Made by a program: the position numbers and the translations under genes. From NCBI GenBank assembly GCA_964573995.1, contig CAZNLH010000002.1, forward strand, positions 25,060 to 89,059: a stretch of 64,000 nt of DNA, read 5' to 3'. The notes beneath the pieces were generated by a model, which saw only the letters and a list, made by a program, of their open reading frames with translations, made no database searches and was not told the DNA's origin. Of the stretch, positions 7,333-46,417 are shown one piece after another. Numbering within the stretch: position 1 is the stretch's first letter; each line of letters opens with the position of its first letter. The DNA is from an uncultured Gemmatimonadota bacterium (GTDB lineage: Bacteria > Gemmatimonadota > CAZMKB01 > CAZNLH01).

Positions 7333-8001
7333 ATGAAGGCAGGAAGATTGAAGGTGCTCGCGCTGACCGTTGCGGTCGGGGCTTGCCTGTACGGGCTGTT
7401 CCTGCTCAGCGATTCTGAAGACGTGCAAAGGGACGATGCGTATTCTGGAGTTGATATCCCGCCATCGACCGACCTCGAGGCACTGCCACCTGTCCTTCGA
7501 CGTCGAGCCTCACGCAAGGCGGATGATGAAGGTGAAAAGGGGGTGGATAGAGAGAAGGGTGTCAGTTCCCCGATAGAACTCGAACTGGAGATCATCTCAA
7601 AGAACAAACTCCAGGGAGACAATGCCGGAGGGGAAGTAACCGTAGGAGCCAGGCTTCGGCCCCTGGTCGACTCACCTGACATTCGATGGTTCGTGAAGGT
7701 CCCGGAAGGCCTGTCATTGATCGGAGGACCGGCCTCCTGGGAAGGAAAGATGGAAGAGGGTGAAGAGAGGACGTTTCAATTGACCTTTTCAGTGCCGGAC
7801 GGGAAGGCGTATGAATTGTACAGCCGTGCCGAGTCGTACCTGGGAAATGGAGATGTCGTGACCAAGGGGGCCGGCCTGCGGATCGACCTCGGCCCCAGGG
7901 AATTGGGCGATTATCCACCCTTTGAGCGGGTCGACAGTGAGGGGAGGCGTGTGATCAGTTACAAGGGAAAAGTGAATGGGTCGAGCGCCGGGGGGGATTA
8001 A
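7333..8001 (+). CDS. hypothetical secreted protein
   Basis: N-terminal signal peptide (LKVLALTVAVGACLYGLFLL), then an acidic low-complexity linker and a Gly-rich C-terminus. No family recognised. Confidence 0.45.
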   Translation: MKAGRLKVLALTVAVGACLYGLFLLSDSEDVQRDDAYSGVDIPPSTDLEALPPVLRRRASRKADDEGEKGVDREKGVSSPIELELEIISKNKLQGDNAGGEVTVGARLRPLVDSPDIRWFVKVPEGLSLIGGPASWEGKMEEGEERTFQLTFSVPDGKAYELYSRAESYLGNGDVVTKGAGLRIDLGPRELGDYPPFERVDSEGRRVISYKGKVNGSSAGGD

Positions 8002-8327: not shown

Positions 8328-9068
8328 TCATCGGTCCGGCCACTCTTCGAGGTGGATCTCTTCGCCCCTGACGCGGCCGTAAGTGAAATGCTCCGACCAA
8401 TCTCCGATGTTGAGGTAAGTCCCCCCATCCATCAGGCACTTCTCGGGCTGGTGGGAATGGCCGACTATGATCCAGTCGTAGGCGCCTGATTCAAGTTGCT
8501 TGCGGGCGAATGCCCTCAGGTTACGAGCAGTACGTTCCCGTTTCTCTTCTATACGTTGCCGGCTCTTTCTCGAAGTGAGTCTCGCCAGCCAGGCCCCCGC
8601 ATCCGGGTGGAGGAGGCTGAAGACGGTTGCGCTGATCGGGCTTCTCAGGATCCTCTTCATGTAGAGATATCCCTTCTCGTTCGCGGAAAGGCCGTCGCCG
8701 TGGGCGAGGAAGGCCCTTCGTTTGCCGAACAATTCACTGGAAGGTGAATCGTGTACTGTAGTTGCGAGGTGTTGTGAGAGGAATCCCGAGGTCCAGTAGT
8801 CGTGGTTGCCGAGGTAATAGTCGATCCTGATACCGTTGCGTCTGAGGTTCCAGAGTCCTGCGAGGATGGGGAAGTTGCATGACGCGATCACTCGGCGGTA
8901 CTCGAACCAGAAATCAAAGAGGTCACCGAGTATTACGAGTCGATGCCCGTGCGTGTTTACGTGGTCGAAGAAGTCCAGGAGTTTGCGCACCTTTGATTCC
9001 TCGACCGCTGGATCATCTGCGCCCAGGTGGGCGTCGGAGAGGAAGAAGATGTCCTCTTTCATACCCAT
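8328..9068 (-). CDS. lpxH: UDP-2,3-diacylglucosamine hydrolase-like calcineurin-type metallophosphoesterase
   Basis: The DxH...GDxxD...GNHD...GH metallophosphoesterase motifs (FFLSDAHLG, ILGDLFDFW, LGNHDYW, VGHSH) are arranged as in LpxH. The start was chosen at the MGMKED Met; the six-frame track extends to 9110. Confidence 0.65.
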   Translation of the reverse strand: MGMKEDIFFLSDAHLGADDPAVEESKVRKLLDFFDHVNTHGHRLVILGDLFDFWFEYRRVIASCNFPILAGLWNLRRNGIRIDYYLGNHDYWTSGFLSQHLATTVHDSPSSELFGKRRAFLAHGDGLSANEKGYLYMKRILRSPISATVFSLLHPDAGAWLARLTSRKSRQRIEEKRERTARNLRAFARKQLESGAYDWIIVGHSHQPEKCLMDGGTYLNIGDWSEHFTYGRVRGEEIHLEEWPDR

Positions 9069-9261
9069 AATATCAAGCAAGGTCTCGCCGGCGTTACTGC
9101 AAGCCGGCATAACGCTCCCACGGCCATCTTAAGATATAATCGGTCTGGAGAAAGGGCAACCTTGTCGGAGTATTGACTCCGCCCTGATTTTTTGATAGTT
9201 TTTGACCTCTTTCGTTAATTCGATCCATTGAATGGGGCATTGAAAGGTGGAGCGTGGAGAA

Positions 9262-14322: not shown

Positions 14323-15597
14323 TCAAGGCAGGACACTGATCGCGGAGGGATATACGAAGCCTCCCACGCTTCCCAGTATGTCTCCATCCTTCGACACCTT
14401 TATCACCCTGCCTTCCATCGAGGTTGCGGCCGCCAGCCAGCACGAGCCCTCCACGGGGTCGACTGCCAGGTCGCTGATGAATTCGAAACCTGGTACGTCC
14501 AGGTCGGTAGTGAATGAGGGCCCTACGCGCGTGATGGTCCAGGTCTCGGCGTAATGGGCGATCCAGCAGGAGCCGTCGCCGGTATTTACGGCCACCTTCA
14601 CGGGCGGTGGCTGGATGTCTCCCAGTGCGAAAAGAGTCCCTCCATCCTTGCTCAATATGGTTACCCCGTTGTCATCGGCGATCCAGCACCGACCGTAGAC
14701 AGGGTCCGCGGATAGCGACACGGGGTTGCTGAAACCGCCTATTGCCGTGAAGTCCTCCTCGCCCGGGCCCTTCCTGTAGACTGTCCCCTCCCCGCGGGAT
14801 GCCACCCACACCGTCCCGTCGCCCTGATCGATGTCTATATCGATCGGGTCCGAAATGTAGGGAAAAAAGGCCAGTTCGTTCCCCGAATCGTCGACCTGGG
14901 AAACACCACCGGGAGACCTGTAGCCGATCCAGAGCGTATGGTCGGAGGCGCGCACGCCGAGGGTGACCGGGAGTCCCCTGCCGGCGCCCGAGTTGCTGTG
15001 CTCGAGCAGAAAGTCTCCGTCGATCCCGTATTTTATGACGCGCCTGCCGAAGTAATCCGCCACCCAGATGGATTGTCCGTCCGGTGAGATCTCCACGTCC
15101 ATGGGGCCCGAGAGACCCGTTACGCGTGTCAAGCGGTCGCGGGCGTCTGGGGTGATCCTCCACAGGGCGGGGGAGTCGAGGTCGACCGTCCAGGCCGTCG
15201 TTGGGCCCGGCGTAGCGACGTCAGAGGCCGAATAATAGCGCTCTGAGTGTGGCGCCAGGAACCGGAGGATATAGGTGTACGTGTGGGAGTTAAGGACATC
15301 GGCATCCGTCCAGGTAGTATCTTCAGGTGGAATCCGGGACTGGTTCAGGGTCGTCGTTTCCGGCGAGTCGCCCTCGAGTCTCAACAAGTCGTATCCCACC
15401 AGGTCGTGAAGGTCGAGGTCGTTCCATGCCAGCCTTACCTCCTCGTCTCCGGCGAGCGCATTTAGGTTGTCAGGCGTTCCACCGGTGGAGGGGTTCATCG
15501 GGTCGAGTGGATTGATGTGGTCTCTCCCCTTGCACCCCTCAGTGAGGAGCAGGGTGCAACAGGAGAGCAGAATGGTAACTGTGGCCCTGTATATCAT
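14323..15597 (-). CDS. lipoprotein with a fibronectin-III-like domain and NHL/beta-propeller repeats
   Basis: Start at MIYRATVTILLSCCTLLLTEGC (signal plus Cys), with an ATGA overlap onto the upstream gene stop. Repeated propeller-like blocks (WVADYFG, WIADDNG, CWIAHY, CWLAAAT). The six-frame ORF extends to 15756, but the internal Met fits the operon coupling. Confidence 0.55.
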   Translation of the reverse strand: MIYRATVTILLSCCTLLLTEGCKGRDHINPLDPMNPSTGGTPDNLNALAGDEEVRLAWNDLDLHDLVGYDLLRLEGDSPETTTLNQSRIPPEDTTWTDADVLNSHTYTYILRFLAPHSERYYSASDVATPGPTTAWTVDLDSPALWRITPDARDRLTRVTGLSGPMDVEISPDGQSIWVADYFGRRVIKYGIDGDFLLEHSNSGAGRGLPVTLGVRASDHTLWIGYRSPGGVSQVDDSGNELAFFPYISDPIDIDIDQGDGTVWVASRGEGTVYRKGPGEEDFTAIGGFSNPVSLSADPVYGRCWIADDNGVTILSKDGGTLFALGDIQPPPVKVAVNTGDGSCWIAHYAETWTITRVGPSFTTDLDVPGFEFISDLAVDPVEGSCWLAAATSMEGRVIKVSKDGDILGSVGGFVYPSAISVLP

Positions 15598-16499
15598 CGT
15601 CTGACAGTATCTCCAAAGTACCACGTGATGATCAGGGGGCTTTCTCCCGATCGTCCAAGTTTCAGGGCGGGGGGTGGCCTCTTCCCCTGATCGCCCCGCA
15701 AGTTCCTGAAAAAGAGGAAAATCGTGGCGCCCAGGGCCACCTGGCCGCTTACCCAAAGTATTCGGGCCCGGTTGTCCATCCGCTCCGCGCCGTTGAACAG
15801 GCGGTTCATATCATCCCTGGATGAGGTGTGCCGGTAATCGTCGAACAGGTCGTCGGCGCGCTCCTTGGTGTAAAATCCGAGTGCAGTGGCGCCGATAAAG
15901 TATGACAATGTGGCGTATGGTAACCAGCCGGGGGACACGCCGGGCCTCTGGTCTTTCCCTGTAGCGGCAACCTCCGGTGTGAGGTTCGAGCCGGCGGGTT
16001 CGAGAGACAGGTTGAGCAGGGGCACCTGGAGTCGGGGATCGTCAAGGCGGAAGGTCAACCTGCGGTATCCGATCTTGGCTACGCTCAAGGTGGAATCTAT
16101 GCCGCGGATGATGCTCAGTGCCAGCGGAGATCGCCCGGCCGGATGGCCGTTCAGGAATATTTCACTTGCTTCGGGCACAGTTGTAACCTGCAGGGGCCTG
16201 ACGTCTCCCTGCCGGATGACCAGGGATTCATCCTCCGCCAGCACGAAGGGACACGATTGCACGGGAGGCAACCATCGACCATCCCGGTCGGGCGGAAGCA
16301 GGGTCATGTAATGAAGGCCTGCTTGCACGGTGAGTGTGGCCGAGTCATTCACCCCCTTCGTTTCATTGTCGATAATGAGCACCGCTCCGGGATAATCCAG
16401 GCGGATCACGGCCGTTTTCTCGGCGAAAGCGGGGGAGATTCGAAAGGCCGGCCAAAGGGGAATCGTCGTGGCCAGTAGCGTGATCGTTGTCTTGCTCAC
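15594..16499 (-). CDS. PEGA-domain secreted or membrane protein
   Basis: Signal peptide; two PEGA-like segments (AVIRLDYPGAVLIIDNETKG and TTVPEASEIFLNGHPAGRSPL); a C-terminal transmembrane segment. It overlaps both neighbouring genes by 4 bp. Confidence 0.5.
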   Translation of the reverse strand: MSKTTITLLATTIPLWPAFRISPAFAEKTAVIRLDYPGAVLIIDNETKGVNDSATLTVQAGLHYMTLLPPDRDGRWLPPVQSCPFVLAEDESLVIRQGDVRPLQVTTVPEASEIFLNGHPAGRSPLALSIIRGIDSTLSVAKIGYRRLTFRLDDPRLQVPLLNLSLEPAGSNLTPEVAATGKDQRPGVSPGWLPYATLSYFIGATALGFYTKERADDLFDDYRHTSSRDDMNRLFNGAERMDNRARILWVSGQVALGATIFLFFRNLRGDQGKRPPPALKLGRSGESPLIITWYFGDTVRR

Positions 16500-20528: not shown

Positions 20529-21545
20529 CTATTCGCTGTTGGGCGGGTTTCCAATGGTCACGCGCTGGTTTCCTATGTGACCGACGCCCCAGATCATGAA
20601 GTCCCCACCGTAATCCGATCCCGCATTCCCCCAGACATCGTCGATCCGCGTGAACATCTGGTCCGGGTGGTTGACCTCCGCATCGACCCCCTGTCCCTCG
20701 CAGGTCGGGTAGTCCGTCAACTGGTCGTTGGCGATGTAGAAGGCCGAACTGATCGGTATGCCGGGATAGGCCACGGCGTGGCTCGTCCCGGGGGTCACCT
20801 GCGATACATCGCTGAAGAGGAGTGTACCGGGCAGGCCCCCTGACCCATCGTTGTCGAAGACTTGAAGCAGGATATCCTGGTGGATATCGTCGGGCCAGGG
20901 CCAGCCGGGGTCGCCCTCGGAGAGGATATAAACCCCGATCGAGTCGAGGACGGAACCATCGGGCAGGCAACCACGAATTGCCCAGGCGTTGCAGAGGTGT
21001 GACCAAGCCCAGGCGTTTGCCATTACGCCGTCATCCCAGCGGACCTCGATCTCGTCCCTGCTGTTCAGATCGAACTGGAAGAAATCGGCGAGTTGGCCGT
21101 CGATGAACAACTTGGCCGTGTAGCGGCCATAGACTTCCAGATTCCACGGCACGAGATCGCTGTATTTGCGGTAAGTCTCCTCGCCGCCCTGAAGCACGAT
21201 TTCATTTTGGAAGAGCGACCGCCGCGATCCGTCAGGGAAGTCAAGGCGAATTTGGACATCACCGCTGTCCTCGGCTTCGTCCTCGTTCCAGAGTTTGATG
21301 TTGAAGGTGAGTTGTTCACCGGGGACCACCTCAAAGGGAACCGTCCGTTCGATCGAGCCGCGGATGCTTTGATGGTCCATTGTAAAATTCCCGAGGTCGC
21401 CGGCCGAGTGGCCGCCGGTGAGAGGGACCGCTGACAGGGCAGGGTTGTCTATTTCATTGGCCATAAAAGAGATGGCGGCGGTGGGAGTCAGGATCCATGG
21501 TATTAAGGAGAGAGGAAAAAGGGTGAGCAAGAACCTGGTCGACAT
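20529..21545 (-). CDS. secreted protein of unknown family, paralog A
   Basis: Signal peptide from MSTRFLLTLFPLSLIPWIL. It shares long conserved blocks with 21823-22794 (YGRYTAKLFIDG, FDLNSR-EIEVRWDDGV, WAIRGCLPDG, WPWPD, PTCEGQGVD). The six-frame ORF runs to 21596. Confidence 0.55.
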   Translation of the reverse strand: MSTRFLLTLFPLSLIPWILTPTAAISFMANEIDNPALSAVPLTGGHSAGDLGNFTMDHQSIRGSIERTVPFEVVPGEQLTFNIKLWNEDEAEDSGDVQIRLDFPDGSRRSLFQNEIVLQGGEETYRKYSDLVPWNLEVYGRYTAKLFIDGQLADFFQFDLNSRDEIEVRWDDGVMANAWAWSHLCNAWAIRGCLPDGSVLDSIGVYILSEGDPGWPWPDDIHQDILLQVFDNDGSGGLPGTLLFSDVSQVTPGTSHAVAYPGIPISSAFYIANDQLTDYPTCEGQGVDAEVNHPDQMFTRIDDVWGNAGSDYGGDFMIWGVGHIGNQRVTIGNPPNSE

Positions 21546-21704
21546 GGCGTTCTCCTTTTTACAGGCTTGCACCTGAAGGGGTGTGAAGGACAGCAAAGAA
21601 ATTATAGATGAAATATCATGTTATTTAAATAATACAACTATCTGTAACTTCACGCAAGGGAAAATTATTGCCGTACAGCAAAGCCCGGATTTTACGGTAT
21701 GAGC

Positions 21705-21822: not shown

Positions 21823-22794
21823 TTACTGCTGAGCAGGCGGATTTCCGACTGTGACGTTCTGCCCTGCAACGGAAGCAATGGCCCAGATCATCAGGTCTCC
21901 TGAGATCGATGAATAAGGTTGCCATGCGCCGCTGATCTCGGCCCACATCTGGTCGTAGTGGTTCAAGGCACCATCGACGCCCTGTCCCTCGCATGTCGGA
22001 TATGGATCCAACTGGTTGTTGGCCACGAAGAAGGCAGATGTGGTGATCGGTACGCTCACGGTCGCAATCGCATCTCCACTTGCACCGCCGTTGGCGATGT
22101 TATCGGAGAGCAGTGTACCAGGGTATCCACCACCGCCCGTGTTGTCATAGAGTTGGACACCGATGTCCTGGTGGACGGCGTCCGGCCACGGCCAGTAAGG
22201 ATCGTTCTCAGAAAGGACATGAACGCCTATCTCGTTGACTACGGCCCCGTCTGGCAGGCAGCCACGGATCGCCCACTTGTTGCCGGCGTCGTACCAGGCG
22301 TAAGCATTTACCAGTACTCCATCGTCCCAACGGACCTCGATATCCGTCCGGCTGTTCAGGTCGAACTGGCAAAAACTGGCCAGGACCCCATCGATGAAGA
22401 GTTTCAGGGTGTAACGTCCATAGAGTTGGAGATTGTCGGGGACATATTCAGAGTAAGGGTACGTGATACTCTGCAGGCCCTCGAGCGTTACGTTCTCTTC
22501 CATCATGGGAACCTGTGCACCGTTAGGGCAGTCGAGGCGCAAGAGGACGTCGGCACTGTTCTGCTCCTGATCGGTGTTCGTCAGGGTGATGTCCGCGGTG
22601 AAATTCTCACCCGGGATGATCTCGAACTCGATCGTACGTTCAATGTGTCCCTTGATCGGACCCTGAATTGTGACTTCACCATAGTTGACCTGATTTCCTA
22701 TGGGCAGGTTTGCAGCTGAGGCTGTTGTGGCGTAAAGCTGGACGTTCACCAGGAAAAACGCCGCGGCAGCAACAGCAAAGACCTTCCTTGTCAT
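21823..22794 (-). CDS. secreted protein of unknown family, paralog B
   Basis: Sec signal peptide (AVAAAAFFLVNVQLYATTASA). It is collinear with 20529-21545 over its whole length; by eye roughly 45-50% identity. Confidence 0.55.
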   Translation of the reverse strand: MTRKVFAVAAAAFFLVNVQLYATTASAANLPIGNQVNYGEVTIQGPIKGHIERTIEFEIIPGENFTADITLTNTDQEQNSADVLLRLDCPNGAQVPMMEENVTLEGLQSITYPYSEYVPDNLQLYGRYTLKLFIDGVLASFCQFDLNSRTDIEVRWDDGVLVNAYAWYDAGNKWAIRGCLPDGAVVNEIGVHVLSENDPYWPWPDAVHQDIGVQLYDNTGGGGYPGTLLSDNIANGGASGDAIATVSVPITTSAFFVANNQLDPYPTCEGQGVDGALNHYDQMWAEISGAWQPYSSISGDLMIWAIASVAGQNVTVGNPPAQQ

Positions 22795-42243: not shown

Positions 42244-42374
42244 GGTAATAATTTTTTCTTGACAAAGGATTCAACATCCCGTACCCTATATAGTGCACGA
42301 CACCATATATTGAGTGTCGACCGTGAACGGAAGATCCGGGTGGTATTATGGGGTGTTTATCACAATCAAGATAC

Positions 42375-42403
42375 TTGACTTGATGAATAAAATGGTGTAT
42401 AAT
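42375..42403 (+). promoter_or_regulatory. near-consensus sigma70-type promoter: TTGACT, 17-nt spacer, TATAAT
   Basis: TTGACT at 42375-42380, a 17-nt spacer, and TATAAT at 42398-42403. It lies about 95 nt upstream of the regulator gene, in an AT-rich intergenic region. Confidence 0.4.
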
Positions 42404-42496
42404 GATATAAATTACGCCGTATTGTTTCATATCTGCCCCAGAAAGAACAAATGTTCCGCAATATTGACCGGTTTTTGAACTAGCGGGGAATGTCAG

Positions 42497-43831
42497 ATGA
42501 AAAAGAAGATCCTGGTGGTGGATGACGAGCCAAGGATTGTCAATTCCTTGGAAGTAATTTTAAGCGAGAAGGGTTACGAGGTGTCAAAGGCCTCCAGTGG
42601 AATGGAGGCCATCGAGATTGTCCGCCAGGACGGTTTCAACATCGTGATAGCGGATTTGATCCTGCCGGGGATGACCGGCCTGGAATTGCTGAAGACCGTC
42701 AAGAGCGAGAGCCCTGACCTCCCGGTCTTTATCGTAACCACTTTCGCCACGATCAATGCGGCTGTAATCGCTATGCGGGAAGGTGCGGAGGATTTCATCA
42801 CTAAGCCGATCTTGGAGAGCGAGATTCGCGTCAAGATCGAACGCGCCATCGAGAGATATAGTATCTTGCAGGAAAATGCCCGTCTGAAGAAAGAGATCAA
42901 TGCGAGGTACTCGTTCGAATCGCATGGATATATAAGCCGGGCCATGCACGAGGTATATCATCAGGTTGAGGAATTCGCCAATAACGACCGTCCGGTTTGG
43001 ATTCATGGAGAGGCGGGAACGGGATACGATGAGATAGCAAAGAGTATCCATTACAACAGCCAGCGCAAAGAGTATCCCTTCATAGCCGTGGATTGCAGCA
43101 TCATCCCGAGGAACATTCAGCAAAACAAACTGTTTGGTGGAAAAACGGGCATGAGGGGGCCAAGGGCTTCGATCATACCGGGAGAGATCGATCTGGCAAG
43201 GGGCGGCACGCTGTTTATAGAGAACGTAGAGGACCTCTCCAGTGAGGCTCAGGCCACTCTCTTTCACTATATCGAACAGGGGATACTCAGGCGTGCAGGG
43301 GTTGAAGATGAGATCGATGTCAGGATAATCTGTACCTCGATAAGGGATCTCTCATCGCTCGTCTCTCAGGAAAAGTTTCGTGAAGACCTTTATTACCAGT
43401 TGTCCGTTCTTCCTATATACATTCCACCATTGCGTAATCGGAAAGAGGATATCCTGCCGCTCGTCAACAAGTTCATCGTGCGATGGAACGAGGAACACAA
43501 TAGAAATGTGAAGAGTGTCAGCCAGGACGCCCTTGACCTGTTGATGGCTTACCACTGGCCCGGAAACAACAGAGAACTGGAGAACGTAGTGGAGAGGGCC
43601 GTCTTGCTGGCCAGGGAAGACCTGATCGAGCCCGAAAACCTCCTGATCAACATCGTCAGCCTAAGGGAGGACGACCCTGGCCTGAAGGAACTATCGCTCG
43701 AACTGGTGGAGAAGGAGCATATCGAGAGGGTCCTCGAGTATACCAACTATAATAAGACGAAGGCCTCCAAGATCTTGGGAATAAACAGAAAGACCTTGCT
43801 GGAAAAGCGGAAAAAGTATAATATAAGTTAG
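42497..43831 (+). CDS. response regulator with an intact receiver and Fis-type HTH but a degenerate sigma-54-interaction (AAA+) domain
   Basis: The receiver has the conserved Asp (IVIADLILPGMTG), Thr and Lys. The central domain is homologous to NtrC-type activators (FREDLYYQL, WPGNNRELEN). However its Walker A is GEAGTGYD (no Lys), its GAFTGA loop is replaced by TGMRGP, and its Walker B is IENV instead of DE. The C-terminal HTH_8 is intact. Confidence 0.75.
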   Translation: MKKKILVVDDEPRIVNSLEVILSEKGYEVSKASSGMEAIEIVRQDGFNIVIADLILPGMTGLELLKTVKSESPDLPVFIVTTFATINAAVIAMREGAEDFITKPILESEIRVKIERAIERYSILQENARLKKEINARYSFESHGYISRAMHEVYHQVEEFANNDRPVWIHGEAGTGYDEIAKSIHYNSQRKEYPFIAVDCSIIPRNIQQNKLFGGKTGMRGPRASIIPGEIDLARGGTLFIENVEDLSSEAQATLFHYIEQGILRRAGVEDEIDVRIICTSIRDLSSLVSQEKFREDLYYQLSVLPIYIPPLRNRKEDILPLVNKFIVRWNEEHNRNVKSVSQDALDLLMAYHWPGNNRELENVVERAVLLAREDLIEPENLLINIVSLREDDPGLKELSLELVEKEHIERVLEYTNYNKTKASKILGINRKTLLEKRKKYNIS

Positions 43832-43919: not shown

Positions 43920-44123
43920 ATGCTGTTTCGGCTCCTTTTAATCATCGTGCTGTTTTACGTGGTCCGCTCCCTGTTCTTGCGCCTTGTCTCGAATGGGGGT
44001 GAGGGCAGTACTACTGGAGAAGGAGCGAAGGACCAGGACCTGGATCTCAGCATGTTCGATATAGAGGACGTTGAGTATCATGACCTGGAGGAGGATTCAT
44101 CCACTCCGGGACCTGGTGAGTAG
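43920..44123 (+). CDS. small hypothetical membrane-anchored acidic protein
   Basis: 67 aa with one N-terminal transmembrane helix and an acidic tail. No family recognised; it may not be a real gene. Confidence 0.25.
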
Positions 44124-44675: not shown

Positions 44676-46157
44676 ATGGAGAGAGAGCACTGGGGCTCTA
44701 AGGTCGGGTTTATCCTTGCAGCCGCCGGTTCGGCGATCGGACTGGGGAATATATGGAAGTTTCCCTATATTACGGGAGAGAATGGAGGAGGGGCCTTTGT
44801 ATTAGTCTATCTCGTCTGCGTCGTCATGATTGGGATCCCGATCATGCTGGCGGAGTTTATCATAGGGAGGAAGAGCCAGAAGGACCCGGTCGGGGCCTAT
44901 AAGGCGATCAGACCGGATTCCCTTTGGTTCTTGGTTGGTGGGATGGGCGTGCTTGCCGGATTTCTGATCCTCTCCTATTACAGTGTCGTGGGCGGCTGGA
45001 CGATCGGTTACTTCGTTGAATCCGTTAGAGGCGTCTTTTATGATCTCAGTGGTCCGGGGCAGATCGGGGATCATTTCGCGACCTTCGCGGCGGATCCGCT
45101 GAAGGCGATCGGTTATCATGCCCTATTCATCGGCCTCTGCATGCTGATCGTCATCAAGGGGGTCAAGGTTGGGATCGAGAGGTGGAGTCGGATTCTTATG
45201 CCTCTCCTCTTCATTATCCTCCTCCTGTTGATTGTGCGGGGTGTGACCTTGCCAGGCTCGGAGGCCGGCCTGGAGTTTTTTTTAAAACCAGACTTCAGCA
45301 AACTTGGACCGGAATCGGTCCTGATCGCCCTGGGTCACGCATTTTTCACGCTGAGCCTCGGCATGGGCGCGATGATCACCTACGGCAGTTATCTCTCCAG
45401 CGATGACAATCTACCGCGATCTGCGTTTATTGTCTCTCTCCTCGATACCGTCATCGCCCTGATGGCTGGCATCGCCATTTTCACCGCGGTCTTCGCCATG
45501 GGCCAGCAGCCGGATAAAGGGCCGGGTCTCGTTTTCGTCCTCCTGCCGGCCGTTTTCGTCGAGATGCCCGGGGGGGCTTTCTTCGGGCCCCTGTTCTTTT
45601 TTCTCCTCGGTATCGCCGCACTCACCTCCGGGATTTCCCTCCTCGAAGTTGTCACCGCCTATTTCGTGGATGAAAAGGGATATTCACGCCACAGGGCGGT
45701 CCTGTGCTTCGGCACGGTGATCTTCCTGCTCGGGGTGCCTTCCGCACTGTCGATGGGTCCGCTGAAGGACCTCACCATAATACGATGGGACTTTTTCGAT
45801 TTCGTAGATCACCTGTCATCCAACTACCTGCTGCCGCTCGGTGGTCTCCTCATATCCGTCTTCATCGGTTGTGCATGGGGAACCAGGGAGGCGGTGGCTG
45901 AGGCCCGGAGGGGGAATCCCGGTTTTCCATGGGCGAAGATGTGGAAGATATTGATCAAGTATGTCTGCCCATTTATAGTAGGGCAGATTCTACTATTCGA
46001 AGGAGTGCTGGCGGAATTCGAGGGAGAAGAGATCGAGAGGACCGTCCAGACCATCAAGTCTTGGACGGGCAAGTTCGATATAGTGATCCTCTTTTTCCTC
46101 GTATTCCTTGCCGTTTACTTCCGCTACTTCTCGCGAACAGAGGAAGAGACGGCTTGA
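44676..46157 (+). CDS. sodium-dependent transporter, neurotransmitter:sodium symporter (SNF) family
   Basis: N-terminal signature AAAGSAIGLGNIWKFPY with 11-12 predicted transmembrane segments. Confidence 0.85.
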   Translation: MEREHWGSKVGFILAAAGSAIGLGNIWKFPYITGENGGGAFVLVYLVCVVMIGIPIMLAEFIIGRKSQKDPVGAYKAIRPDSLWFLVGGMGVLAGFLILSYYSVVGGWTIGYFVESVRGVFYDLSGPGQIGDHFATFAADPLKAIGYHALFIGLCMLIVIKGVKVGIERWSRILMPLLFIILLLLIVRGVTLPGSEAGLEFFLKPDFSKLGPESVLIALGHAFFTLSLGMGAMITYGSYLSSDDNLPRSAFIVSLLDTVIALMAGIAIFTAVFAMGQQPDKGPGLVFVLLPAVFVEMPGGAFFGPLFFFLLGIAALTSGISLLEVVTAYFVDEKGYSRHRAVLCFGTVIFLLGVPSALSMGPLKDLTIIRWDFFDFVDHLSSNYLLPLGGLLISVFIGCAWGTREAVAEARRGNPGFPWAKMWKILIKYVCPFIVGQILLFEGVLAEFEGEEIERTVQTIKSWTGKFDIVILFFLVFLAVYFRYFSRTEEETA

Positions 46158-46183: not shown

Positions 46184-46417
46184 ATGATATCTTTACGAGT
46201 CGATGTCGCTTCCCTGACGGAGCACCCCGATAAGGTTTCGGTCCTCTTGGCCAAGGCGTTCTTCAAGGAACTCAGGAGATATAATTTTTCGGATCGTCAG
46301 GTGATCCGTGTGGCAAGTGAGTTGATCGAATGTCTGAACAAGAGCCTGGAGGGCTACAAGGATAAGGTGAGCAGGGAGGGTGGGGGAGATGACGACAGGG
46401 TCGATGCGACCGAGTAG
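46184..46417 (+). CDS. small hypothetical protein
   Basis: A 77-aa ORF in the gap between the transporter and the radical SAM gene. It has no recognisable motifs and is weakly supported. Confidence 0.3.
   Translation: MISLRVDVASLTEHPDKVSVLLAKAFFKELRRYNFSDRQVIRVASELIECLNKSLEGYKDKVSREGGGDDDRVDATE

Follow-up and report, generated by a model that had tools for sequence, protein, structure and literature searches.

The response regulator analysed here is probably an atypical protein of the enhancer-binding protein (EBP) type that is specific to the Glassbacteria lineage of the Gemmatimonadota. The protein descends from NtrC1-like activators of sigma-54, retains their three-domain fold, and is encoded by a gene that is predicted to be transcribed from conserved sigma-70-type promoters. 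Neither ATP hydrolysis nor remodelling of the sigma-54 holoenzyme appears to be possible for this protein and, in one of the two subclades of its orthologues (subclade A below), ATP is probably not bound either. Most likely, it is a phosphorylation-switched, sigma-54-independent DNA-binding transcription factor that would serve sigma-70 promoters and is built on a pseudo-ATPase scaffold. The window denotes the entire 64-kb stretch of DNA that was analysed.

Domain architecture and fate of the AAA+ motifs

The gene and the domains of its product are the following:
42497-43831, + strand: gene for a REC–AAA+ (degenerate)–HTH_8 response regulator of 444 aa (ORF list; Pfam domains; identical to P0001)
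42509-42838, + strand: receiver (REC) domain, residues 5-114 (Pfam Response_reg, PF00072, E = 2.9e-28)
42815-42907, + strand: alpha5-linker helix, continuous from REC to AAA+, residues 107-137 (AlphaFold2 monomer model, pLDDT about 85-91)
42935-43417, + strand: AAA+ alpha/beta core, a catalytically degenerate homologue of the sigma-54 interaction domain, residues 147-307 (Sigma54_activat, PF00158, E = 1.4e-40)
43433-43657, + strand: AAA+ lid, residues 313-387 (AAA_lid_14, PF25601, E = 1e-24)
43694-43819, + strand: Fis-type HTH_8 DNA-binding domain, residues 400-441 (PF02954, E = 3.9e-14)

The sequence-only reading that preceded this analysis had described an intact receiver and an intact Fis-type HTH on either side of a central domain resembling sigma-54 activators, and all three assignments are borne out. 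The residues D9, D10, D53, T81 and K103, i.e., the DD acidic pocket, the phospho-acceptor Asp (codon 42653-42655), the Thr and the Lys that are characteristic of two-component response-regulator receivers, are all present and invariant within the clade of orthologues (alignments A1 and A2), and the domain is accordingly predicted to be an authentic receiver. In the HTH_8 domain, the stretch ILGINRKTLLEKRKK shows no variation within the clade (invariant columns of A2), and the recognition helix is likewise invariant. The PF00158-type central domain combined with the AAA+ lid is of the kind found in the bEBPs.

The AlphaFold2 model of the window protein (pLDDT 86) has an intact fold. The modelled AAA+ domain superposes on that of NtrC1 (1ny6) with a TM score of 0.92-0.94 and an rmsd of about 2 A, and a fold search with the full-length model retrieves inactive-state NtrC1 (1ny5) as the top match. 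A continuous helix between REC and AAA+ is a mark of NtrC1/DctD-type receiver control (coiled-coil linker, off-state dimer), with which the helix in the monomer prediction of the window protein and the 1ny5 match would be consistent.

The motifs of the AAA+ domain were located by a residue-by-residue HMMER alignment to NtrC1 from Aquifex aeolicus (4l4u/1ny5) and by a column tally in a MAFFT alignment of 256 sequences, with 15 clade members and an outgroup of the 241 nearest full-length homologues from outside the clade:
43007-43030, + strand: Walker A remnant GEAGTGYD, residues 171-178 (NtrC1 alignment; column tally)
43148-43165, + strand: remnant of the L1 loop, GMRGPR instead of GAFTGA, residues 218-223 (NtrC1 alignment; column tally; A2)
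43208-43225, + strand: Walker B remnant TLFIEN, residues 238-243 (NtrC1 alignment; column tally)
43331-43345, + strand: sensor I region CTSIR, residues 279-283 (column tally)
43376-43402, + strand: FREDLYYQL, residues 294-302 (NtrC1 alignment; column tally)
43556-43585, + strand: sensor II motif WPGNNRELEN, intact, inside the lid, residues 354-363 (column tally)

The two procedures agree, so the apparent losses are not due to misplaced motifs. In Walker A, GESGVGKE of NtrC1 corresponds to GEAGTGYD, with Lys177 replaced by Tyr; none of the 241 outgroup sequences lacks the Lys, and the position is occupied by Y, C, S or R across subclade A. Both the Lys and a Ser/Thr had been reported missing from this motif. 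The first of these losses stands, whereas the absence of Ser/Thr is normal, given that canonical EBPs have GK[E/D] here rather than GK[S/T], and the loss of the Lys alone is abnormal. As had been claimed for the other two motifs, GAFTGA and the Walker B DE are gone. The former reads GMRGPR (Phe replaced by Arg, Thr by Gly; across the clade, Phe is replaced by Arg or Lys and Thr by Gly), with the clade consensus [RK]-G-[PIMV]-R in which G221 and R223 are invariant, and is modelled as a beta-hairpin (pLDDT about 72-74). In Walker B, FLDE has become FIEN (residues 240-243), i.e., DE is replaced by EN; the outgroup has LFLD-E, with the Asp in 239/241 sequences, and clade members read E[N/D] or [E/V]H.

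Two further changes come in addition to the three motifs recognized earlier. Sensor I reads CTSI instead of AATN, so that the Asn found in 208 of the 241 outgroup sequences is an Ile, and the arginine finger, which is the second Arg of FREDLYYRL and present in 240/241 outgroup sequences, is Gln301 (43397-43399) in the window protein and Q or H throughout the clade; the first Arg of this motif, R295, is retained. All clade members and 241/241 outgroup sequences have the sensor II Arg359, and the P-loop glycines and R190, the Arg that follows Walker A, are also conserved in the clade.

Altogether, the lost residues are 86-100% conserved in the outgroup and changed in all 15 clade members, the only exception being the Walker A Lys of subclade B; by this tally, the losses are far beyond chance. 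Of the elements expected of a functional bEBP, the window protein thus lacks GAFTGA, the Lys of Walker A, the DE of Walker B, the arginine finger and the sensor I Asn. In the EBPs studied, exchange of either the Phe or the Thr of GAFTGA is by itself sufficient to abolish activation (PMC3162934 and references therein). Because mutation of such residues eliminates activity in characterised EBPs (PMC3162934), the window protein is predicted neither to hydrolyse ATP nor to contact sigma-54, in support of the original proposal that it cannot activate sigma-54.

Orthologues and selection

Independent metagenomes (JGI, NCBI, ENA and Logan assemblies) yield 16 orthologue clusters, with 58-100% identity, that share the degeneracy. 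Subclade A (11 clusters) has lost all of the motifs, and subclade B (5 clusters) retains the Walker A lysine alone, in the form GENGTGKE; no orthologue that keeps all the motifs was found among them. The retention of this lysine in subclade B suggests stepwise decay. Comparison of unsaturated pairs yields dN/dS of 0.04-0.07 for the AAA+ core and 0.016-0.043 for REC, which indicates that the AAA+ domain, although catalytically degenerate, is under strong purifying selection.

An artefact of sequencing or assembly, or else a decaying pseudogene, would be suggested by the unusual motifs taken alone, and the chance that either applies is practically negligible. The protein matches P0001 with 100% identity (JGI, NCBI and Logan) and is present in identical form on three contigs, each of which was assembled independently; the reading frame is full in all orthologue clusters except for a single fragment (P0016) that is frameshifted at the C-terminus; and the Tyr codon at position 177, TAC, is at least two base changes away from AAR. 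The degeneracy shared by the 16 clusters, the three contigs and the low dN/dS of the AAA+ core jointly lead to the rejection of this explanation.

Among 1.84 billion representatives scanned, the clade stands isolated: it scores 874 bits, compared to at most 377 bits for any other full-length protein, and no broader degenerate family was found. The protein P0241 shows similar degeneracy but, with 34% identity and a different gene context, is an independent case. The nearest canonical EBPs are no more than 42% identical to the window protein. No non-degenerate orthologue was found at the same locus in relatives, 0/79 canonical EBP loci in the genome collection sharing the rodA/ssb neighbourhood.

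Genomic context and possible modes of action

In 10/10 loci examined, the gene is located between mreBCD-mrdA-rodA and ssb. No cognate kinase is encoded in the 64-kb window or adjoins the gene in any locus examined. The upstream region contains the following elements:
42259-42287, + strand: distal sigma-70-type promoter-like element P1, TTGACA-17-TACCCT, directly after the rodA stop codon (locus alignment)
42302-42313, + strand: near-palindromic element ACCATATATTGA, a candidate operator, about 15-18 nt 3' of the P1 -10 hexamer (conserved in the loci)
42375-42403, + strand: proximal sigma-70-type promoter P2, TTGACT-17-TATAAT, 93 nt 5' of the ATG (scan; 11/12 consensus positions)
42485-42489, + strand: Shine-Dalgarno-like GGGGA, 7 nt 5' of the ATG, within a conserved 5'-UTR block (sequence; alignment A3)

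P2, which had been noticed previously, lies at a conserved position, with a conserved sequence, in 10/10 orthologous loci. The position of P1 is conserved in 10/10 loci as well; in the window, P1 has a weak -10 hexamer. The element next to P1 has the consensus AC.A.AT.TTG, with a perfect ACAATATATTGT in two loci (L086 and L089); the 136 kb of clade loci contain 15 copies, in all cases at P1, compared to 2.0 +/- 1.6 occurrences in shuffled sequences. Given that no second copy is present in the window or in the 136 kb of clade loci, including the regions upstream of mreB and ssb, this element does not support a regulon. As an operator, this candidate would be a short near-palindrome whose left half varies; alternatively, it might be an RNA 5' element. 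Rfam gave no match at the gathering threshold for the long intergenic region upstream of the gene, either in the window or in four subclade-B loci.

Within the 64-kb window, neither an RpoN box nor a second EBP nor the -24/-12 consensus (TGGCAC-N5-TTGCW) is found. Sigma-54 is present in Gemmatimonas aurantiaca, a member of another class of the same phylum (Francke et al. supplement); two comparative papers on Gemmatimonadota do not mention rpoN.

Under the preferred explanation, Asp53 would be phosphorylated by an unlinked kinase, and this modification would alter the association of the pseudo-ATPase scaffold into dimers or oligomers, which is controlled by REC and the linker; the changed scaffold state would then alter DNA binding via the invariant Fis-type HTH. 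The conserved element that overlaps the start region of the distal promoter is a candidate autoregulatory operator, by analogy with the repression of the ntrYX promoter by NtrX, and the basic [RK]-G-x-R hairpin that takes the place of GAFTGA might provide a new contact surface. Considering the intact P-loop of subclade B and the retention, across the clade, of R295, the sensor II Arg and the glycines of the P-loop, nucleotide or ligand binding of some sort may persist.

Several other functions are compatible with parts of these observations. That the protein still activates sigma-54, through non-canonical residues, would agree with the overall PF00158 homology and with the occurrence of sigma-54 in the phylum, at least in G. 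aurantiaca; nevertheless, this is highly improbable, considering that five independent catalytic or contact elements have been lost together, that, in the EBPs studied, one substitution of the Phe or Thr in GAFTGA suffices to abolish activation, and that the gene's own promoters are of the sigma-70 type. An anti-activator role, in which the dead AAA+ domain co-assembles as a poison subunit with a canonical EBP paralogue or the protein fills the enhancer sites of that paralogue and so blocks sigma-54-dependent activation, would agree with the AAA+ fold and lid, which are intact in the model. In addition, two canonical EBPs, P0019 and P0021, have nearly the same HTH recognition helix (ILGINRKTLLEKRK-YN), which makes competition for shared sites conceivable. 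However, identity of 42% or less to the nearest canonical EBPs is low for the assembly of mixed rings, P0021, the canonical EBP with the most similar HTH, resides in an unrelated gene context, and neither a canonical EBP nor rpoN nor a -24/-12 promoter is found in the window, so that this role is improbable as well.

Less remote, albeit still unlikely, is control by a ligand in the manner of VpsR and FleQ, whereby the remodelled nucleotide pocket or the arginine-rich L1 hairpin binds a small molecule (c-di-GMP, ppGpp or, in subclade B, ATP without hydrolysis), alongside or instead of phosphorylation. The conserved P-loop glycines, Arg359, R190 and R295, the new invariant basic motif in L1, the GENGTGKE of subclade B, and the precedents of VpsR and FleQ, in which c-di-GMP binds to the AAA+ domains of EBPs (PMC6158489; PMC10714721), all point in this direction. 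The c-di-GMP site of the FleQ/VfmH type consists of the post-Walker-A Arg and the arginine of an ExxxR motif (PMC10714721). Arguing against a ligand, the neighbourhood of the gene includes no diguanylate cyclase or phosphodiesterase, and the free variation of the Walker A position in subclade A (Y/C/S/R) is at odds with a constrained ligand pocket there. Furthermore, the ExxxR arginine, which we take to be the arginine finger (R334 of FleQ), is Gln or His in the clade; if the two are equated, the FleQ-type site is not intact, R190 being present and its partner lost. Ligand control is compatible with the phosphorylation-switched, sigma-54-independent factor described above, to which it would add a second input.

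A more far-reaching version of this sigma-54-independent factor, which we consider rather doubtful, holds that the dead AAA+ domain has been repurposed and is not merely tolerated, the [RK]-G-x-R hairpin and the nucleotide-free P-loop forming a new surface that would contact region 4 of sigma-70, the alpha-CTD or else a small ligand. If true, envelope growth in Glassbacteria, represented by the elongasome operon mreBCD-mrdA-rodA next to the gene, would be tied to a signal by a conserved, phosphorylation-gated regulator, and the two subclades would represent successive steps in the formation of an AAA+ pseudoenzyme, from an ATP-binding, non-hydrolysing form to a nucleotide-free one.

Comparison with known regulators

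The window protein is a further example of the known atypical EBPs, such as VpsR, NtrX and TyrR, and not a new kind of system. Atypical EBPs are defined as EBP homologues in which GAFTGA is defective or absent (PMC6158489, PMC3162934), a combination that the window protein displays at the sequence level. EBPs that lack GAFTGA or Walker B constitute an established category, so the case is more ordinary than the sequence-only reading implied, and, since such proteins have been known for decades, no long-standing question is opened by this one. Its interest lies in a lineage-wide case in which the ATPase and sigma-54-contact functions have been completely erased from a fold that is under strong selection, with a sister subclade that keeps the P-loop lysine. 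This makes the clade a natural test case for the transition from AAA+ activators to pseudo-ATPase transcription factors and for a scaffold role without nucleotide. The clade also carries a warning for annotation: its members are labelled "sigma-54-dependent transcriptional regulator", "NtrC family" or "AtoC" by NCBI and JGI, and these labels are almost certainly wrong with respect to function.

The closest solved relative, NtrC1 from A. aeolicus (E = 5e-94, about 41% identity), has the same REC–linker-helix–AAA+–HTH layout but possesses GAFTGA, all the catalytic motifs and a working ATPase. VfmH was ruled out as a precedent for a dead ATPase because it keeps the Walker motifs and hydrolyses ATP. 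TyrR/PhhR, HupR, HsfA and DhaR have a defective GAFTGA and are sigma-54-independent (PMC3162934; PMC6158489). None of them is orthologous to the window protein, which scores 195 bits with the NCBIfam model for TyrR (cut-off 576) and 238 bits with that for DhaR (cut-off 551). The sensory domains are different as well: TyrR, PhhR and DhaR are not known to carry a receiver domain.

The NtrC proteins of Rhodobacter capsulatus and Caulobacter crescentus, from which GAFTGA is deleted, are phosphorylation-dependent response regulators of the EBP type that function at sigma-70 promoters (bioRxiv 10.1101/2023.06.06.543975). Both proteins keep Walker A and B; the R. capsulatus protein requires ATP binding, and the C. 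crescentus protein depends on residues of both motifs (K178A and D235A are null), whereas in the window protein both motifs are destroyed.

NtrX (Brucella, Sinorhizobium and Caulobacter) is likewise a REC–AAA+–HTH response regulator without GAFTGA and is the second-best full-length structural match to the model (5m7p/5m7n/5m7o). It recognizes palindromes of the form CAA-N3-5-TTG and acts as a repressor of its own promoter (PMC6158489; bioRxiv 10.1101/2020.11.06.341933); the element at P1 in the window (CAATAT.TTG-like) resembles this motif. NtrX is linked to cell-envelope and cell-cycle genes and is apparently specific to Alphaproteobacteria. With 282.7 bits against a cut-off of 600 for the NCBIfam model NF051870, the window protein falls outside the NtrX family, and it shares neither the adjacent kinase gene, NtrY in the case of NtrX, the window gene being an orphan, nor, apparently, nucleotide binding, given the missing Walker A Lys; crystals of NtrX with ATP and ADP (5m7n, 5m7p) show that its nucleotide site is retained. 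Moreover, the L1 loop is shortened in NtrX but full-length and rewritten in the window protein.

VpsR from Vibrio cholerae also combines the REC–AAA+–HTH layout with the absence of GAFTGA and a replaced Walker B DE, which is ND in VpsR and EN in the window protein. It needs no ATP and activates transcription with sigma-70 RNA polymerase (PMC6158489; bioRxiv 10.1101/2023.06.06.543975). By analogy with VpsR as a sigma-70 activator and NtrX as a repressor (PMC6158489), the alternative roles proposed at the outset (repressor, anti-activator or sigma-70-dependent regulator) would match those of known atypical EBPs. VpsR, which is c-di-GMP-dependent, comes from another lineage and genomic context and is 24-25% identical to the window protein in a structural alignment; in the window protein, the Lys of Walker A and the arginine finger are missing in addition.

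Domains and motifs of the regulator

The gene of the NtrC-like regulator is intact, and its start follows a Shine-Dalgarno sequence, GGGGA, at a distance of 7 nt. Its product has the complete domain set of a response regulator related to sigma-54 enhancer-binding proteins (EBPs):

42497-43831 (+): regulator gene, 444 aa (ORF list)
residues 5-114: Response_reg (Pfam)
residues 147-307: Sigma54_activat (Pfam, E 1.4e-40)
residues 313-387: AAA_lid_14 (Pfam)
residues 400-441: HTH_8 (Pfam)

The protein falls below all NCBIfam equivalog cut-offs: the best score is for AtoC (316 bits vs the cut-off of 714), and that for NtrX is 283 bits vs 600. The nearest solved relative is NtrC1 from Aquifex aeolicus (E 5e-94, about 41% identity), and a HMMER alignment to this characterised EBP was used to place the motifs.

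Motifs of NtrC1, the regulator, and the two subclades of its orthologues (A, including the regulator, and B, its sister group)
Motif; NtrC1; regulator; subclade A; subclade B
Walker A; GESGVGKE; GEAGTGYD; Lys gone, position freely variable (Y/C/S/R); Lys retained (GENGTGKE)
L1 loop (GAFTGA site); GAFTGA; GMRGPR; [RK]GPR; RG[IMV]R
Walker B; FLDE; FIEN; E[N/D]; [E/V]H
Arginine finger; FREDLYYRL; FREDLYYQL; Gln (His in the homologue P0004); His
Sensor I; AATN; CTSI
Sensor II; Arg; Arg359 retained

The alignment agrees with every motif call of the sequence-only reading, upholding the proposed losses of Walker A, GAFTGA and Walker B, and adds those of the arginine finger and sensor I. The statement that Walker A has neither Lys nor Ser/Thr holds for the former residue; lack of the latter is normal because canonical EBPs contain GK[E/D] rather than GK[S/T], so that only the absent lysine is abnormal. 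In an alignment of 256 full-length homologues, the 241 sequences outside the regulator's clade are nearly uniform in the respective columns (Walker A Lys in 241/241, Walker B Asp in 239/241, arginine finger in 240/241, sensor II Arg in 241/241, and sensor I Asn in 208/241), and the deviations of the regulator are therefore highly non-random. The receiver domain is intact, as originally described, with D9, D10, D53, T81 and K103 all present.

The AlphaFold2 model of the regulator (mean pLDDT 86) includes a normal receiver domain, one continuous helix (residues 107-137) like those in linkers of the NtrC1/DctD type, an AAA+ alpha/beta core and lid that are both complete, a beta-hairpin in place of the rewritten L1 loop, and an HTH domain joined via a flexible tether. 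A Foldseek comparison superimposes the AAA+ model on the NtrC1 ring subunits (1ny6) with TM scores of 0.92-0.94 and rmsd of about 2 A; over its full length, the model is matched best by NtrC1 in the inactive state (1ny5) and by NtrX (5m7p), an atypical, i.e., sigma-54-independent, EBP.

Orthologues, subclades and selection

A homologue search identifies a clade of 16 clusters with 58-100% identity to the query, followed by canonical EBPs at 42% or less. In a profile search of all 1.84 billion cluster representatives, the clade is a single 50% cluster (874 bits), and the next full-length match scores 377 bits. One clade member carries the name Candidatus Glassbacteria, which GTDB ranks as a Gemmatimonadota class (PMC11316326), and the species-level genome collection contains just one close relative, with the label Gemmatimonadota. 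The degenerate motifs are common to clade members from independent JGI, NCBI, ENA and Logan assemblies, which rules out a sequencing error or other artefact.

The clade alignment splits into subclade A, with 11 clusters including the one from the window, and subclade B, with 5. The most parsimonious reading of their motifs is that sigma-54 contact and catalysis were lost in the clade ancestor and the P-loop lysine later, in subclade A. In the two pairs that are informative for dN/dS, most others being saturated at synonymous sites, the AAA+ core shows values of 0.04 and 0.07 vs 0.016-0.043 for the receiver, so that the domain is still under strong purifying selection.

Genomic neighborhood and promoters

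In 10/10 independent loci, the regulator gene is preceded by mreB-mreC-mreD-mrdA-rodA and followed by ssb, in the same orientation, with a long intergenic gap (232-678 bp) before it and no adjacent histidine kinase. This neighborhood occurs in 0/79 retrieved canonical EBP loci. The window is a housekeeping/envelope block (in this order: nusA, infB, truB, ribF, pnp, the elongasome genes, the regulator, ssb, ugd, tol-pal, tatC, lptD), and no kinase, sigma factor, second EBP, RpoN box or -24/-12 consensus was found within its 64 kb. Features around the regulator gene, and ORFs of the window without a Pfam match, are as follows:

42259-42287: P1, distal sigma-70-like element directly after rodA
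42302-42313: near-palindrome, ACCATATATTGA
42375-42403: P2, proximal promoter, TTGACT-17-TATAAT
42455-42490: conserved 5'-UTR block, TTGACCGGTTTTT.AAC..CGGGGA, including the Shine-Dalgarno sequence
43920-44123 (+): 67-aa ORF between the regulator and ssb, no Pfam match
44676-46157 (+): SNF-family sodium symporter, between ssb and a radical-SAM gene
46184-46417 (+): 77-aa ORF, no Pfam match
7333-8001 (+), 8328-9110 (-), 14323-15756 (-), 20529-21596 (-), 21823-22794 (-): five ORFs of 222-477 aa, no Pfam match at E 1e-5

The near-consensus promoter noticed at the outset, P2, matches 11/12 consensus positions and is kept in 10/10 loci, 67-93 nt from the ATG. P1 is likewise conserved in 10/10 loci, with equivalents at the same position in L002, L082, L084 and L086-L091; P1 and P2 are about 90-120 nt apart in subclade A vs 270-430 nt in subclade B. 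Some 15-18 nt after the P1 -10 hexamer, there is a conserved near-palindrome with the consensus AC.A.AT.TTG, which in two loci is the perfect palindrome ACAATATATTGT. In 136 kb of clade sequence, there are 15 occurrences of the consensus, all of them at P1 (2.0 +/- 1.6 in shuffles), and in 3/4 subclade-B loci (L082, L084, L090) an inverted second copy is located 30 bp upstream, in the promoter spacer. No known RNA family was detected in these promoter regions. The element may serve as an operator, or form the 5' end of a small RNA or leader. NtrX acts as a repressor at its own promoter through CAA-N3-5-TTG sites (bioRxiv 10.1101/2020.11.06.341933; PMC6158489), which the P1 element resembles in geometry and in its CAA-N4-TTG form; by this analogy, autoregulation through the candidate element is plausible. 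Within the 5'-UTR block, short complementary CCG/CGG segments could pair to give a small hairpin close to the ribosome-binding site.

Downstream, the 67-aa ORF, whose N-terminal segment is hydrophobic and whose tail is very acidic, is found in subclade-A loci only (42-52% identity) and is absent in subclade B. The symporter is present in most subclade-A loci but missing from L088 and every subclade-B locus, which makes it a small, lineage-specific insertion into a gene order that is otherwise rigid. In L001, L086, L087 and L089, it is followed by unnamed genes of 71-77 aa, at the position of the 77-aa ORF, and L088, which lacks the symporter, has a 75-aa gene directly 3' of ssb.

Predicted function and relationship to atypical EBPs

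Homology and the structural model indicate that the regulator retains the EBP fold. It lacks the ATPase and sigma-54-contact residues, yet is under purifying selection; its phospho-acceptor site is intact, its HTH invariant, and its own promoters are of the sigma-70 type. As far as sequence analysis goes, the initial interpretation of a phosphorylation-controlled DNA-binding protein incapable of sigma-54 activation is supported. Such a protein would be unable to power sigma-54 open-complex formation and is likely to be a phosphorylation-switched regulator at sigma-70 promoters, in which the pseudo-ATPase domain would act as a scaffold for dimerisation or oligomerisation, and possibly, via the L1 hairpin with its conserved basic character, as a new contact surface.

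The survey also revealed further sporadic degenerate EBPs. One of these, the EBP-type response regulator P0241 (locus L093, 6001-7377; 34% identity to the clade), from an independent lineage and another context, retains GENGTGKE but has a deleted or rewritten L1 loop, LNN in Walker B and His at the arginine finger, showing that EBPs have degenerated severely in other lineages, too; its gene is divergent from a ferredoxin/NrfD/cytochrome c3 operon with a HAMP histidine kinase. Three separate stretches in each of the homologues P0121 (1027 aa) and P0124 (942 aa) match the clade profile, so these proteins may hold tandem EBP-like modules; a regex pass detects a lysine-less Walker A-like GEHGTGLA in P0121. 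In the same phylum, Gemmatimonas aurantiaca T-27 encodes several EBPs besides its one sigma-54 gene; among them, gi 226227420, with GAFPGA and a Walker B, GGTLYLDN, ending in DN, is partly degenerate, and another sigma-54-related gene is located about 8 genes away from mreD (Francke et al. 2011 supplement).

Established atypical EBPs include TyrR, PhhR, HupR, HsfA, NtrX, VpsR, DhaR, and NtrC of Rhodobacter and Caulobacter (PMC3162934; PMC6158489; bioRxiv 10.1101/2023.06.06.543975). VpsR already combines GAFTGA loss, a dead Walker B and ATP independence, and the VpsR paper mentions atypical EBPs with non-consensus Walker A or B motifs. The regulator clade, which scores below the cut-offs for NtrX, TyrR and all other NCBIfam families, is outside every named family but within this known kind. 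Three features set it apart: how complete the loss is (Walker A Lys, Walker B DE, arginine finger, sensor I and GAFTGA), the two-step pattern of loss across the subclades, and its fixed place beside the elongasome operon.
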